Virus genome (UHGV): UHGV-1687506
Direction: 5' to 3' (one strand)
DNA: 20,101 bases
Origin: a virus
Below the pieces are notes generated by a model. That model was given only the letters and a program-made list of their open reading frames with translations, was not told the DNA's origin and did not search any database. Within the stretch, counting starts at the first letter, position 1; every line of letters begins with the position of its first letter. This document shows, piece after piece, positions 1,869 to 6,822 of this stretch. The translations under genes were made by a program, and so were the position numbers.

Positions 1869-2162
1869 TTATTGTGAGCAATACACCCGCGCTTCCAGCG
1901 GAGTATAAATGCCTAAGGTAATAAAACCGAGCAATCCATTTACGAATGTTTGCTGGGTTTCTGTTTTAACAACATTTTCTGCGCCGCCACAAATTTTGGC
2001 TGCATCAACAGTTTTCTCCTGTCCAATTCCCGAAACGAAGAAATGATGGGTGATGGTTTCCTTTGGTGTTACTGCTGTCGGTTTGTTTCCAACAGTAAAC
2101 GTCTGTTGAGCACATCCTGTAATAAGCATTGCCAGAGCGGCAGAAAACAACATTTTTTTCAT
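1869..2162 (-). CDS. bor: Bor outer-membrane lipoprotein (serum-resistance moron)
   Basis: Track ORF 1869..2210 trimmed to the MKKM start. The 97-aa product has a LITGC lipobox and is near-identical to lambda Bor. It is convergent with Rz, as in lambda, and AGGA precedes the ATG. Confidence 0.9.
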   Translation of the reverse strand: MKKMLFSAALAMLITGCAQQTFTVGNKPTAVTPKETITHHFFVSGIGQEKTVDAAKICGGAENVVKTETQQTFVNGLLGFITLGIYTPLEARVYCSQ

Positions 2163-2280
2163 CTTATTATCCTGCATTGTTAAAAACGGCAGAATCCTAT
2201 GTGACAACAATTAAACGATAGTTAAATGGATTGATGAAAATTAAAACTATATAGGTGGATGCTCAGCCTATTGGAGGTAG

Positions 2281-2529
2281 TCAGGATTTGAATGTCAGTC
2301 TGTTGTCGGCATTCTGGCAATGCAATTTGGATAAAGTGGGGATTAAAAAGATAGAGGCGAGCCGGTCAGGTAGAAATGAATCAGGCTCAAAGTGAAGCGG
2401 AAAAGGTCTGTGGCACAAACTGATGCTGCCATAATTACAGCCTGATGACTTGTGGAATGAAACATGTTGAACCTCCTTAATTGATGTGATTCGAGTGAGG
2501 AAGGCATTCTGTCCCTCTATAGTGTCCAT
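2281..2529 (-). CDS. Hypothetical 82-aa ORF in the AT-rich spacer (doubtful)
   Basis: It is the only ORF of 60 aa or more in the bor-HNH spacer. Its composition (F/L/S/H/C-rich) looks like AT-rich non-coding translation and I recognise no family. Confidence 0.2.
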   Translation of the reverse strand: MDTIEGQNAFLTRITSIKEVQHVSFHKSSGCNYGSISLCHRPFPLHFEPDSFLPDRLASIFLIPTLSKLHCQNADNRLTFKS

Positions 2530-2546
2530 TAAATCAAACGGGAAAT

Positions 2547-2566
2547 TTGTCTCATGCGTGAGACAA
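2547..2566. repeat. Perfect palindrome TTGTCTCA-TGCG-TGAGACAA
   Basis: Two 8-bp arms are exact reverse complements around a 4-bp centre. No U-tract follows on either strand, so it looks more like a protein-binding site than an intrinsic terminator. Confidence 0.45.
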
Positions 2567-2686
2567 GTCTCTCCATTAGTGAGTTGTATTGATTGCGACT
2601 CTTCAAAGAATCCATTACTGCGTTGATGAAAAAGGTTTACTACGAATGAAGGCTGCTATTTCGCTGGTTTCTTCATTGGAGTACAT

Positions 2687-3037
2687 ATGCCCCCACGAAC
2701 CCCAAAAGCCTGCCGTGTTCGCGGCTGCCGCTCTACAACCACGGACCCTTCAGGCTACTGCGAAAGCCACAAAAGCGAAGGCTGGAAGCAATACAAACCT
2801 GGACAATCCCGTCATCAGCGCGGCTACGGTTCGAAGTGGGACAGTATCCGCGCGCGTGTCCTGAAGCGTGACAAAGGCCTGTGCCAGTTGTGCCTGCGTG
2901 CCGGTGTGGTGCGTGAGGCGAAAACCGTTGACCACATTATCCCTAAAGCGCATGGCGGCACTGATGCTGACTGCAATCTGCAGAGTTTGTGCTGGCCGTG
3001 TCATAAGGCGAAGACGGCCCGTGAACGGCTTAAGTGA
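2687..3037 (+). CDS. HNH endonuclease (terminase-associated type)
   Basis: The 116-aa product has two Cys pairs (CxxC...CxxC) flanking DHIIPKAHGG and ...N...CWPCH, the HNH/zinc-finger signature. It sits immediately upstream of the small terminase gene, as in HK97. Confidence 0.85.
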   Translation: MPPRTPKACRVRGCRSTTTDPSGYCESHKSEGWKQYKPGQSRHQRGYGSKWDSIRARVLKRDKGLCQLCLRAGVVREAKTVDHIIPKAHGGTDADCNLQSLCWPCHKAKTARERLK

Positions 3038-3063
3038 TAATAATTCTCAACTGTTTGAGGGTA

Positions 3064-3123
3064 GGGGCGGGTCCAATCCCTGTGACCTGACGTCTTCCGG
3101 ACTGCCCGCCCCATCGTTTTTTT
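3064..3123. other. Candidate cos region: GC-rich inverted repeats plus a T7 tract between the HNH and small terminase genes
   Basis: GGGGCGGG (3064-3071) and CCCGCCCC (3105-3112) are perfect inverted repeats 33 bp apart, with TCC/GGA extending the arms, an internal GACGTC palindrome and then TTTTTTT (3117-3123). The position matches where cos lies in HK97-like genomes. The cut site cannot be determined from sequence. Confidence 0.35.
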
Positions 3124-3162
3124 ATACCCGCGAAAAATGAAATTTAACCAGGAGTGCCGCAT

Positions 3163-3657
3163 ATGGCTGGAACGGCGGGGCGTTCCGGGCGTCGCCCCAA
3201 GCCAACGGCGCGCAAGGCGCTGGCCGGAAACCCCGGCAAGCGAGCCCTGAATAAAGATGAACCTGTTTTTACGCCCATCAAAGGTGTTGAGCCACCTGAG
3301 TGGTTCGCAGAAGAAAATCTCCCTCTCGCCACGATCATGTGGCAACTGACAACCAAAGAACTCTGCGGTCAGGGCCTGTTGTGCGTGACTGACCTCGCGG
3401 TGCTTGAGCGGTGGTGCGTGGCCTATGAGTTCTGGCGACGTGCCGTGAAAAATATTGCCATACAGGGCAACACCATCACCGGTGCAATGGGCGGCAGGGT
3501 CAAAAATCCGGAGCTGACCGCCAAAAAAGAACAGGAGTCCGAGATGAGCAGCACGGGGGCAATGCTCGGACTCGACCCCAGCAGCCGCCAGCGTCTGATT
3601 GGCCTGGCGGGGCAGAAGAAAGCCACTAACCCGTTTCTGAAAATCATCGAGTCATGA
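3163..3657 (+). CDS. Terminase small subunit (P27 / HK97 gp1-like)
   Basis: Track ORF 3154..3657 trimmed to the ATG at 3163, which has AGGAG 8 nt upstream. The basic N-terminus (GRSGRRPKP...GNPGKR) is typical of P27-family small terminases. The stop overlaps the large terminase start. Confidence 0.85.
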
Positions 3658-5387
3658 GCCGGAAATCTCACCCCAACGTAAATGCTGCCAATCAGTATGC
3701 CCGTGATGTTGTGCGCGGAAAGATTGTGGCCTGCCAGTTTGTGATTCAGGCCTGCCAGCGCCATCTTGATGACCTGATGGCGGAAAAAAGTAAGTCGTTT
3801 CGTTACCGCTTCGACAAGGACCTGGCTGAACGGGCCGCCAAATTTATTCAGCTGTTGCCGCATACCAAGGGTGAGTGGGCATTCAAACGGATGCCCATCA
3901 CGCTGGAGCCGTGGCAGCTCTTTGTGATCTGCTGTGCGTTTGGCTGGGTCAATAAAGGTACCCGGCTGCGCCGCTTCCGGGAGGTGTATACCGAAATCCC
4001 CCGTAAGAACGGCAAATCGGCAATCTCTGCCGGTGTCGCCCTGTATTGTTTTGCCTGTGATAACGAGTTTGGCGCGGAAGTGTATTCCGGTGCCACGACA
4101 GAGAAACAGGCGTGGGAAGTCTTTCGCCCGGCGCGACTGATGTGTAAACGCACACCCATGCTGACGGAAGCGTTCGGGATTGAGGTTAACGCCTCAAACA
4201 TGAACCGTCCGGAGGATGGTGCGCGGTTTGAACCGCTGATCGGTAACCCCGGTGATGGTTCATCACCCCACTGTGCCGTGGTGGATGAATATCACGAGCA
4301 CGCCACAGATGCGCTTTACACCACGATGCTTACCGGGATGGGGGCGCGACGTCAGCCACTGATGTGGGCTATCACTACCGCCGGGTACAACATTGAGGGG
4401 CCGTGCTACGACAAACGGCGGGAAGTCATCGAGATGCTCAACGGCTCGGTGCCTAACGATGAACTGTTCGGGATCATCTATACCGTTGATGAAGGTGACG
4501 ACTGGACCGACCCGCAGGTGTTGGAAAAAGCCAATCCAAATATTGGCGTGTCGGTTTATCGCGAATTTTTGTTAAGTCAGCAGCAGCGTGCGAAAAATAA
4601 CGCCCGTCTGGCAAACGTCTTTAAAACAAAACACCTCAATATCTGGGTGTCGGCGCGTTCGGCGTATTTCAACCTGGTGAGCTGGCAGAGCTGCGAGGAT
4701 AAATCACTGACCCTTGAGCAGTTCGAGGGGCAGCCGTGCATTCTGGCCTTTGACCTGGCGCGTAAGCTGGATATGAACAGCATGGCGCGACTTTATACCC
4801 GCGAGATTGACGGTAAAACGCATTACTACAGTGTGGCCCCGCGTTTCTGGGTACCGTATGACACGGTGTACAGCGTCGAGAAAAATGAAGATCGACGGAC
4901 AGCCGAACGCTTTCAGAAATGGGTGGAAATGGGCGTTCTGACCGTTACCGATGGTGCGGAGGTGGATTATCGCTACATCCTCGAGGAGGCCAAAGCGGCG
5001 AACAAAATCAGCCCGGTCAGTGAGTCACCCATCGACCCCTTCGGGGCGACCGGGTTGTCACATGATCTTGCTGATGAAGACCTGAACCCCATCACTATCA
5101 TTCAGAACTACACCAACATGTCCGACCCGATGAAAGAGCTGGAAGCGGCAATTGAATCGGGGCGCTTTCATCATGATGGCAATCCCATCATGACCTGGTG
5201 TATCGGCAACGTGGTCGGCAAAACCATTCCGGGTAACGATGATGTGGTGAAGCCCGTCAAAGAGCAGGCGGAAAACAAAATCGATGGTGCAGTTGCGCTG
5301 ATTATGGCGGTTGGCAGAGCCATGCTGTACGAGAAAGAAGACACGCTGTCTGACCACATTGAGTCCTATGGGATCCGCTCGCTTTAA
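3654..5387 (+). CDS. Terminase large subunit (HK97 gp2-like ATPase/nuclease)
   Basis: The 577-aa product has a Walker A-like P-loop (PRKNGKS), a Walker B-like acidic hydrophobic stretch (AVVDEYHE) and a C-terminal nuclease-like region. The ATGA overlap with the small terminase gene indicates translational coupling. Confidence 0.93.
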
Positions 5388-5398
5388 CTGAGGTAATT

Positions 5399-5581
5399 AT
5401 GATCATGCTGATTCTCGCGCCTCTGGTGGGCGTGCTGGGGGCGCTTTTGCTGGCGTATGGTGCCTGGCTGATTTATCCCCCGGCGGGGTTTGTTGTTGCC
5501 GGGGCGTTGTGCCTGTTCTGGTCGTGGCTGGTGGCGCGATATCTCGACCGTACACAGTCGTCTGTCGGCGGAGGTAAATAG
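5399..5581 (+). CDS. Small hydrophobic protein (60 aa, about two predicted TM helices), function unknown
   Basis: [49 protein letters not shown] is strongly hydrophobic. The ORF fills the gap between the large terminase and portal genes on the same strand, and its stop overlaps the portal GTG. Confidence 0.5.
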
Positions 5582-6822
5582 TGTTCTTTTCGGGATTATT
5601 TCAAAGAAAAAGTGACGCACCGGTGACCACGCCAGCAGAGCTGGCGGATGCTATCGGGTTGTCCTACGACACCTATACCGGAAAGCAGATCAGCAGCCAG
5701 CGGGCCATGCGACTGACGGCGGTTTTTTCCTGTGTCAGGGTGCTGGCGGAGTCGGTCGGGATGTTGCCCTGCAACCTGTATCACCTGAACGGCAGCCTGA
5801 AGCAGAGAGCCACTGGCGAACGTCTGCATAAGCTGATCTCCACGCATCCCAATGGCTATATGACGCCGCAGGAGTTCTGGGAGCTGGTGGTCACCTGTCT
5901 GTGCCTGCGGGGAAACTTTTACGCCTACAAAGTGAAAGCATTTGGCGAAGTGGCTGAACTGCTGCCCGTCGATCCCGGCTGTGTGGTACCGAAGCTTAAC
6001 AGTAGCTGGGAGCCGGTCTATCAGGTCACATTCCCGGATGGCTCCACGGATGTACTGAGCCAGGAGGATATCTGGCATGTGCGCACGCTGACGCTGGACG
6101 GACTGGTGGGGCTGAATCCCATCGCCTATGCCCGCGAGGCAATATCGCTGGCGGCAGCGACCGAAGAGCACGGGGCCAGACTGTTCAGCAATGGCGCGGT
6201 GACGTCGGGTGTGTTGCGTACAGAGCAGACGCTGTCAGATCAGGCTTATGAGCGCCTGAAGAAAGATTTTGAGGAGCGTCACACCGGGCTTGGCAATGCT
6301 CACCGCCCGATGATCCTTGAGATGGGGCTGGACTGGAAGTCGATGGCGCTGAACGCCGAGGACAGCCAGTTCCTGGAAACCCGCAAGTTTCAGCTTGAAG
6401 AAATCTGTCGTCTGTTCCGGGTGCCGTTGCACATGGTGCAGAACACCGATCGCGCCACCTTCAACAATATCGAAGAGCTGGGGCTGGGATTTATCAACTA
6501 TTCACTGGTGCCGTATCTGACCCGCATCGAACAGCGGATCAACACCGGACTGGTACGAAAAAGTAAGCAGGGCGTTTATTACGCCAAATTTAACGCCGGG
6601 GCGTTACTGCGCGGGGATATGAAGTCCCGTTTTGAAGCCTACGCCACCGGGATCAACTGGGGAATTTACTCTCCCAATGACTGCCGCGACCTGGAAGATA
6701 TGAATCCGCGTCCCGGTGGTGATGTCTATCTCACACCGATGAACATGACCACGAAACCCTCCGATGGCAGTAAAGCCGGTAAGCAGAAGGATAACGCCAA
6801 TGCAGACGAAACAACGTCTTGA
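5581..6822 (+). CDS. Portal protein (HK97 family)
   Basis: The 413-aa product sits between terminase and prohead protease and resembles HK97-family portals. GGAGG lies 6 nt upstream of the GTG at 5581; the start is not certain. Confidence 0.88.
   Translation: MFFSGLFQRKSDAPVTTPAELADAIGLSYDTYTGKQISSQRAMRLTAVFSCVRVLAESVGMLPCNLYHLNGSLKQRATGERLHKLISTHPNGYMTPQEFWELVVTCLCLRGNFYAYKVKAFGEVAELLPVDPGCVVPKLNSSWEPVYQVTFPDGSTDVLSQEDIWHVRTLTLDGLVGLNPIAYAREAISLAAATEEHGARLFSNGAVTSGVLRTEQTLSDQAYERLKKDFEERHTGLGNAHRPMILEMGLDWKSMALNAEDSQFLETRKFQLEEICRLFRVPLHMVQNTDRATFNNIEELGLGFINYSLVPYLTRIEQRINTGLVRKSKQGVYYAKFNAGALLRGDMKSRFEAYATGINWGIYSPNDCRDLEDMNPRPGGDVYLTPMNMTTKPSDGSKAGKQKDNANADETTS

Follow-up and report, generated by a model that had tools for sequence, protein, structure and literature searches.

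A very probable cos site of the SfV/SfI/phiP27 group between the HNH endonuclease and small terminase genes of a temperate myovirus prophage

The window is a stretch of 20,101 nucleotides of UHGV virus genome UHGV-1687506, and all coordinates refer to it unless stated otherwise. According to Pfam and PHROGs matches, the genes at the locus lie in the order HNH endonuclease, Terminase_4 small terminase (TerS), large terminase with ATPase and nuclease domains (TerL), and portal. The following features were delimited.

2687..3037, plus strand: HNH endonuclease gene, 116 aa (Pfam HNH, E=5e-15; phrog_144 HNH endonuclease, E=5e-45)
3035..3049, unstranded: palindrome TGATAAT-A-ATTCTCA of the 7-1-7 form, overlapping the HNH stop codon
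3038-3162: gap between the HNH gene and terS, 125 bp
3059..3078, unstranded: G-block GGGTAGGGGCGGGTCCAATC, which holds the left arm (3064-3071) of an inverted repeat (from the cut-anchored alignment of 73 regions)
3079..3098, unstranded: variable spacer including GACGTC at 3089-3094; its sequence differs between lineages
3099..3102, unstranded: GGAC, conserved left flank of the cut (boundary from the SfI gap, the phiP27 cos-site and the HK97 record end)
3103..3112, plus strand: cohesive end TGCCCGCCCC, 10 nt, probably a 3' overhang (equal to the 10-mer of the SfI run-off gap)
3117..3145, unstranded: block TTTTTTTATACCCGCGAAAAATGAAATTT including a T7 run, putatively TerS-binding and cosB-like (from conservation and co-segregation)
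3163..3657, plus strand: small terminase gene (terS), 164 aa, P27/Terminase_4 family (Pfam Terminase_4, E=4e-20; phrog_83, E=1e-58)
3654..5387, plus strand: large terminase gene (terL), 577 aa, HK97-type (Pfam TerL_ATPase and TerL_nuclease)
5581-6822: portal gene, downstream of terL

The core of the HNH protein was aligned with HK97 gp74 at 45% over 42 aa (E=2e-10), and the homologue of 2687-3037 is labelled "HNH endonuclease" in RefSeq E. coli genomes. It is a packaging accessory nuclease and the final gene of the virion right arm; a bor gene and an 82-aa ORF sit between Rz and HNH. The start of terS was placed at the ATG at 3163, which matches the start of SfV orf1 and is preceded by a ribosome-binding site (AGGAG, 3150-3154). 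TerL was matched to HK97 gp2 by BLASTP with 26% identity over 522 aligned positions (E=7e-30), and homology of TerS to HK97 gp1, itself without a Pfam match, was not detected by BLASTP (E=6.9). Homology of TerS to gp1 does not define the class of the site, because the TerS type varies among the cos sites found. ORF sizes suggest a contractile-tail gene set. Annotations of E. coli genomes routinely name the three genes HNH endonuclease, P27-family small terminase and large terminase, and the prophage carried by E. coli PCN061 is 99.9% identical.

An earlier note, made from the letters of the window, had proposed that the HNH-to-terS gap is a cos site and had pointed to two perfect 8-bp arms, a GACGTC palindrome and a T7 tract lying within it. 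All of these features, together with the flanking HNH and terS genes and the 125-bp length of the gap, were found where it had placed them: the arms are GGGGCGGG (3064-3071) and CCCGCCCC (3105-3112) with 33 nt between them, and the T7 run occupies 3117-3123. As shown below, the significance of the site comes from identity to an experimentally mapped cos and from deep conservation, not from this symmetry.

By megablast against phage records, identity of the window to the Shigella phages SfV, SfI, SfII and SfIV was about 97% on the terS side, and several E. coli and Salmonella phages matched it at 95-97%. The virion DNA termini of SfI have been sequenced by run-off, which revealed a 10-nt gap, 5'-TGCCCGCCCC-3', relative to the prophage; the 10-mer was taken by the authors to be the cohesive end, at nearly the same site as that of SfV (PMC3636060), and cos has been described as identical in SfI, SfII, SfIV and SfV (PMC3851460). 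The mapping of the SfV cos is known here through the SfI and SfIV papers. The mapped SfI 10-mer corresponds exactly to 3103-3112, so that the gap does hold the cos of these phages of about 97% identity. In the SfI record, the first base corresponds to window position 3113 and the last bases read ...GGACTGCCCGCCCC (in longer form ...CCGGACTGCCCGCCCC), ending in the 10-mer, which bears out the further proposal that the window spans both the right and the left end of the virion DNA. Two other records place the end homologously. In that of phiP27, a misc_feature 'cos-site' consists of CGCCCGCCCC and lies between the HNH and terS genes; that of HK97 ends in ...TGAC CGCCGCCAAA and starts with GTTTGAATTT, so that the register is the same and the cut falls after GAC (GAC|CGCCGCCAAA, where the bar marks the cut). 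The comparison with the mapped cos of HK97 and of the SfV group, which had been suggested as a check, thus gave GAC followed by a 10-nt end in each case.

From these data we conclude, with a probability of about 0.9, that an SfV/SfI/phiP27-type temperate myovirus prophage has its cos site at 3035-3145, and the site belongs to the HNH-dependent, HK97-type class of cos and, within it, to the mapped SfV/SfI/phiP27 group. What has been demonstrated is where the cohesive end lies and how it reads in near-identical phages, together with the pattern of conservation; 3' polarity in the SfV group, the protein that reads each block and continued activity of the prophage are deduced. The proposal that cos lies in the HNH-terS gap is therefore correct but already known by experiment in the same phage group.

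The alternative with most to be said for it is that the site is a relic, the prophage being defective and the site never cut in this host. Many prophages are cryptic, and regions matching this one are present in 1539 of 5426 complete E. coli genomes. Against this, the ORFs of the packaging, head and tail modules in the window are all intact and of normal length, and the cos region is identical to that of functional phages of the SfI/SfV group over the cohesive end and the flanking blocks on both sides; we therefore hold a relic to be improbable. The question concerns activity rather than identity, and a defective prophage would be compatible with the cos explanation.

The right virion end would consist of ...GGAC plus the 10-nt overhang (3103-3112), and the left end would begin at 3113. 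The overhang in the SfV group is probably 3', as in HK97, because the SfI run-off reads both stop short of the 10-mer, and a gap rather than an overlap implies recessed 5' ends. With this polarity, the top-strand nick would fall between 3112 and 3113, and that of the bottom strand between 3102 and 3103 (bottom strand, 5'-CA^GTCC). In HK97, a 10-nt 3' overhang is formed and cleavage of cos by terminase is stimulated by the HNH protein gp74 (PMC9410871, PMC11331095, PMC13595911), whose gene adjoins the terminase genes in the circularized prophage; the role of the HNH protein given in the earlier note agrees with this literature.

For comparative analysis, one genome per species was scanned with an HNH alignment, which yielded 80 diverse loci from Enterobacterales, Aeromonadales, Alteromonadales and Burkholderiales. 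Seventy-three cos regions, drawn from the diverse loci together with SfV, phiP27, HK97, Klebsiella phage ST101-KPC2phi6.3, Salmonella phage F1055 and the window, were then anchored at the cut. Their consensus was ggGG.gGGGcGGGtcaAAtctcta...ccct.gccc...aGGAC | cGCCgcCt.a ..t.ttTTtttAt.ccCGCgaaatA.aAAa.TTtttt, and the G-block, a spacer, GGAC|YGCC and a T-run were common to the 73 regions from Enterobacterales to Burkholderiales. The set rests on a regular expression that includes AC[CT]G, which was part of the search pattern for most loci, so that the invariance of AC|YG is partly circular and is independent only for the subset found with a G-block HMM. This profile of 28 nt recovered 49 of 87 loci with nhmmer, a figure to be read in the light of so short a model; in the 49 G-block-only matches as printed, AC(C/T)G stood within about 1 nt of the expected offset (judged by eye, uncounted).

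Information content in the 73 regions was high at -41 to -26 from the cut. The alignment was ungapped and anchored only at the cut, and the G-block therefore keeps a constant register relative to it, with about 41 bp between its centre and that of the cohesive end. HK97 carries the block as GGGGGGGGGATCAAATC. All three types of TerS distinguished below are accompanied by the G-block and GGAC|YG, and these two parts are therefore probably read by TerL and/or the HNH protein; by analogy of position with the cosQ of lambda, the G-block is a candidate docking or termination element for one of these two. Prophages of Betaproteobacteria also carry the G-block. Among 80 near-identical loci from IMG/VR, a set distinct from the diverse loci, variable sites were confined to 3038-3056 (just past the HNH stop), 3062, and spacer positions 3074, 3079 and 3083-3085, and both arms of the inverted repeat were invariant. 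The window differs from most relatives at two single bases of the G-block region, with T instead of G at 3062 and C instead of A at 3074. Conservation across related prophages, the in silico check that had been proposed for this region, was thus found both among close relatives (the arms) and across the 73 regions (the G-block and cut context).

The resemblance of GGGTCCAATCCC to GGTTCGAATCC was considered as a tRNA T-arm and rejected, as Rfam gave nothing and variation of the block (TCGAAAGTTCA) breaks the stem. A scan of 2400-3800 against Rfam with E up to 10 returned noise only (sR10, sR32 and IRES_Bip, far below gathering scores).

The inverted repeat itself was evaluated as a structural unit. 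Of 2000 mononucleotide shuffles of the gap, 5.8% contained a perfect inverted repeat with arms of 8 bp or more and a loop of 3-60 nt (P about 0.06), and 20 such repeats are present across the 20-kb window. When folded as RNA, the gap gave a minimum free energy of -36.2 kcal/mol, which is not unusual (z = -1.83), with 3064-3072 paired to 3104-3112 and a U-run after the stem. In the 73 loci, the G-block and the cut block had a longest complementary run of 5.07 nt on average within loci versus 5.15 nt between loci, and the corresponding duplex energies were -17.8 and -18.2 kcal/mol, respectively. The 8-bp match was found only with cohesive ends of the form (T/C)GCCCGCCCC; where the ends are of the CGCCGCCTAA type, the left block is still GGGGCGGG-like and complementarity is at most 5 nt (3 nt in HK97). 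Covariation of the two arms was not found in the 73 cos regions, and no consensus structure was predicted for these sequences by RNAalifold.

These results bear on two further alternatives. The first is that the inverted repeat and the T7 run form a Rho-independent terminator that ends HNH and late-gene transcription before terS, as would fit the pairing of the arms and the U-run in the predicted fold. The loop is 33 nt, however, the T-run begins 4 nt past the stem, a consensus terminator scan gave no call at the site, and the fold z-score is only -1.83. In the 73 relatives, complementarity is usually only 5 nt and within a locus no better than between loci, RNAalifold found no consensus structure, and the T-run is kept as part of a TerS-type block rather than as the tail of a stem. 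Read-through would also be needed to reach terS, terL and the head genes, which follow in the same orientation. A terminator is thus very unlikely, and the possibility raised beforehand that the element acts as a terminator alone has the terminator scan, the covariation test and RNAalifold all against it. The second is that the symmetry of the arms is itself functional, as a hairpin, a cruciform or a two-fold protein site recognized by terminase. The arms are perfect in the window and invariant in the 80 close relatives from IMG/VR, but the restriction of the 8-bp match to (T/C)GCCCGCCCC ends, the limit of 5 nt with CGCCGCCTAA-type ends, the equality of complementarity within and across loci, and the chance probability of about 0.06 in the gap leave functional symmetry equally hard to credit. 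The inverted repeat arises incidentally, a G-rich block on one side facing a C-rich cohesive end on the other. As an element of cos, the repeat proposed in the earlier note stands insofar as its right arm (3105-3112) lies inside the cohesive end itself; it does not stand as a structural unit, the arms being without covariation.

The GACGTC palindrome of the spacer is lineage-specific and was present in only 5 SfV-like sequences. A hairpin or dyad in the spacer, GACGTC included, was rejected (mean folding z = -0.06 over 73 loci), with a small GC hairpin in some lineages.

On the other side of the cut, 3117-3145 was the most conserved stretch downstream in the 73 regions, and the sequences there sorted into classes that track the TerS encoded next. 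Type A, TTTTTA(T/C)ACCCGCGAAA(A/T)AT..AAATTT, occurs with TerS of the SfV/phiP27 type, type B, ..CATCGCCGCAGGTTAGAAAACTTTTTT, with TerS beginning M(S/P)GPPKTPTHL..., and type C, TTTTTACGCGCCCAAAATAAGAAACTTTTTT, with a third type of TerS. In HK97, the minimal TerS site has been located at +15 to +29 from the cut (CTAACCCGATTTTTT), where one G and the adjacent A-tract are recognized (PMC11331095); the equivalent offsets in the window are 3127-3141 (CCCGCGAAAAATGAA). The block at 3117-3145 is likely to be the TerS binding site (cosB-like), an assignment made because of two observations, the match of its position with the HK97 site and its co-segregation with the TerS type. The TerS proteins of the window and HK97 are not detectably homologous, and the analogy with HK97 is therefore one of position only. 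The T7 tract highlighted beforehand accordingly belongs to a conserved block right of the cut, but this block is specific to the TerS type and does not serve as the tail of a terminator. The cos site thus appears from sequence comparison to be modular, with a TerS-type-specific part right of the cut and a common G-block and AC|YG left of it.

A further element was found at the left edge of the site. The palindrome at 3035..3049 resembles a Fur box, agreeing with the 7-1-7 motif TGATAATnATTATCA at 13 of 14 positions in the window and at 14 of 14 in some relatives, e.g. L110 and L116. At least 10 of 14 matches to TGATAATnATTATCA were present at -60 to -77 from the cut in 41 of the 73 cos regions, a score that random 50-nt windows taken at these loci reach in about 3% of cases. 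In HK97, the palindrome is TGAGAATGAATCGCA, at -64. Both the palindrome and the G-block are independent of the TerS type and common to phages from HK97 through SfV-like myoviruses.

Packaging at this site might proceed as follows. TerS would bind 3117-3145 and recruit TerL, and TerL and the HNH protein would cut concatemeric DNA with a 10-nt stagger, leaving TGCCCGCCCC (3103-3112) as a 3' overhang. Of the two virion DNA ends, the right one would come from the lysis-bor-HNH side and the left one from the terS-terL-portal side. From 3113, packaging would then run rightward across terS, terL and the genes for head and tail and would stop at the next cos, where the motor would meet first the palindrome, then the G-block and then the cut site.

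It has been proposed that one nick is made by the HNH protein and the other by TerL (PMC11331095, PMC12967558), and CG^GT is the sequence cut by HNH nickases that are linked to packaging in Bacillus and Lactobacillus phages (PMC3592412). The bottom-strand nick deduced here reads CG^GTCC in phiP27 and other GGAC|CG relatives, CG^GTCA in HK97 and CA^GTCC in the window, and the context of the top-strand nick is without conservation. This similarity of sequence suggests that the HNH protein may make the bottom-strand nick; the assignment is speculative because purified gp74 and the lactococcal HNH protein HrdP cut DNA non-specifically in vitro (PMC12967558), and a second caution is that AC[CT]G had been written into the pattern that collected most loci. 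More broadly, and tentatively, the left half of HK97-type cos sites could be an undescribed, deeply conserved composite of the palindrome (about -64) and the G-block GGGGnGGGTCAAATC, serving as a recognition or termination element for TerL and the HNH protein, with AC|YG as the place where the latter nicks the bottom strand at CG^GT; we regard this as doubtful rather than established, and if true it would settle which nuclease makes which nick. The distance from the G-block to the cut (41 bp centre to centre) corresponds to about four helical turns, and the block is cosQ-like by position.

Headful (pac) packaging, with the gap serving solely as an intergenic regulatory region, deserves almost no credence, because the virion DNA ends of SfI are defined and a headful mechanism was excluded by its authors (PMC3636060), TerL is HK97-type, and the HNH-terS-terL arrangement is a reported hallmark of HNH-dependent cos packaging (PMC13595911). 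A lambda-type cos was rejected as well, the window having a P27/Terminase_4 TerS, an HK97-type TerL and a 10-nt cohesive end versus Nu1/gpA and 12-nt 5' overhangs.

Knowledge of the cos ends can help in the annotation of E. coli and Shigella genomes, many of which contain a member of this very common prophage family. To the understanding of packaging nothing new is added by the site as such, because the cos of SfI, SfV, phiP27 and HK97 has already been mapped. Possible small additions are the Fur-box-like palindrome and the modular build of the left half; no description of them was found in literature that did not include the key HK97 and SfV papers. The modular anatomy could guide mutagenesis of HK97-type cos sites, and it bears on whether TerL or the HNH protein cuts a given strand, a question open in the literature (PMC11331095, PMC12967558).

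Among known systems, the cos of lambda is nicked with a stagger, binds TerS on the side of terS and carries a conserved element, cosQ, about 30-45 bp to the other side. This cosQ-cosN-cosB arrangement and that of the window follow the same logic by position only, without sequence similarity. Lambda also has 12-nt 5' overhangs, a Nu1-type TerS and no HNH protein, its helpers being IHF and gpFI (PMC13595911). The cos of HK97 is like that of the window in its right-end HNH gene, the distance of the G-block, a C-rich end of 10 nt whose left edge reads GAC|CG and a homologous TerL, and to the right of the cut, at about 15-30 bp, both have an ACCCG motif and an A/T tract. HK97 differs in its cohesive end (CGCCGCCAAA), in a TerS that is not detectably homologous and in its siphovirus tail, and a span of 178 aa without an annotated feature lies between its HNH gene and cos. 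Closer still is the Stx2e phage phiP27, which shares the register, a P27-family TerS, the G-block (GGGGAGGGGCGGGTCAAATCCC), the palindrome (TGATAATTATTCTCA) and the block right of the cut (TTTTTACACCCGCGAAAT); its cohesive end CGCCCGCCCC begins with C whereas that of the window begins with T, its spacer sequence differs, and nucleotide identity is about 72%. SfV lacks the bor gene and the 82-aa ORF that the window has between Rz and HNH, and the GenBank records of SfV, SfIV and SfII begin arbitrarily in the gap (at the equivalents of window positions 3096, 3096 and 3038, respectively) rather than at the mapped end. The cos of SfI, SfV, SfII and SfIV is like that of the window in the cohesive end TGCCCGCCCC, in its flanks and in the order HNH-cos-terS-terL.

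The cos regions of 73 related phages and prophages, the window included, were compared in an ungapped alignment anchored at the cut, and the features to the left of and around the cut were located as follows (window coordinates).

90-440, C-terminal part of a DNA methyltransferase-like ORF
421-843, holin
847-1323, endolysin
1320-1778, Rz
1869-2210, minus strand, Bor lipoprotein gene (Pfam Lambda_Bor, E=1e-30)
2281-2529, minus strand, 82-aa ORF
3035-3049, palindrome TGATAAT-A-ATTCTCA, overlapping the HNH stop codon
3059-3078, G-rich block GGGGnGGGTCAAATC; counterpart in HK97 (locus L004) at approximately 685-704
3099-3104, GGAC|TG, left edge of the cohesive end, within the conserved G(G/T)AC|(C/T)G

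The G-rich block was held in constant register with the cos cut, with no insertion or deletion over the 73 loci, and was found alike in HK97, in the SfV-like group and in prophages from distant Proteobacteria; its presence was independent of the type of small terminase. By analogy, we take this block to occupy a position equivalent to that of cosQ in lambda. The palindrome at the HNH stop codon is similar to the 7-1-7 form of the Fur box, TGATAATnATTATCA. Of the 73 cos regions, 41, that of HK97 among them, had a similar motif 60-77 nt leftward of the cut, against a background match rate of about 3%, and two Providencia loci (L110 and L116) carried a perfect TGATAATGATTATCA at this place. The strongest terminator-like hairpin detected in the window by a terminator scan lies elsewhere: located between terL and the portal gene, it spans 5417-5444 and consists of 12 pairs followed by TTTT.

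The HK97 overhangs are described as 10-nt 3' extensions in the Figure 1 legend of the HK97 packaging paper (PMC9410871), and the Discussion of the same paper gives 10-nt 5' overhangs for lambda and 12-nt 3' overhangs for HK97. The two numbers in the Discussion look swapped, and the HK97 overhang was taken as 10 nt, in agreement with PMC11331095. The GenBank records of SfV (U82619.2), SfIV (KC814930.1) and SfII (KC736978.1) start at positions corresponding to window 3096, 3096 and 3038, respectively, and differ from the end mapped in SfI (window 3113); record coordinates in the SfV-like group should therefore not be taken as physical termini.

HNH genes were also present on two metagenome-assembled contigs labelled Bacillota (L143) and Candidatus Pacearchaeota (L158). 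Over the 150 nt shown, only five positions distinguished the cos region of the former from that of the window, and the latter had a recognisably related one; these labels are likely to result from contamination or mis-binning.

The match between the window and several E. coli siphophage records runs from the bor side across the HNH gene and the G-rich block and breaks off at about 3082, inside cos; beyond this point these records (e.g. Escherichia phage vB_EcoS-733R4, L007) have another TerS and an end of the CGCCGCC type. Position ~3082 is a mosaic junction within the cos site.

The bor gene and the 82-aa ORF (1869-2529), the latter with no family match in Pfam or PHROGs, lie between Rz and the HNH gene on the opposite strand and are a moron-like insertion. 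SfV lacks both, its Rz/Rz1 being directly upstream of the HNH gene; vB_EcoS-733R4 has a Bor arrangement similar to that of the window.

In some genomes (loci L091, L099, L100, L103, L107, L129 and others), at least one extra ORF separated the HNH gene from cos, and cos followed the HNH stop at a distance of 250-800 nt, its elements still adjoining terS. Direct adjacency of HNH and cos is thus frequent without being obligatory; HK97, too, has a 178-aa span without an annotated feature between the two.

The context of the top-strand nick was not conserved among the related loci compared. The bottom strand of the conserved left edge reads CG^GT (CA^GT in the window), although most loci were gathered with a pattern containing AC[CT]G and the constancy of this motif is partly circular. 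Packaging-linked HNH nickases from Bacillus phages are reported (PMC3592412) to nick at this sequence, CG^GT.
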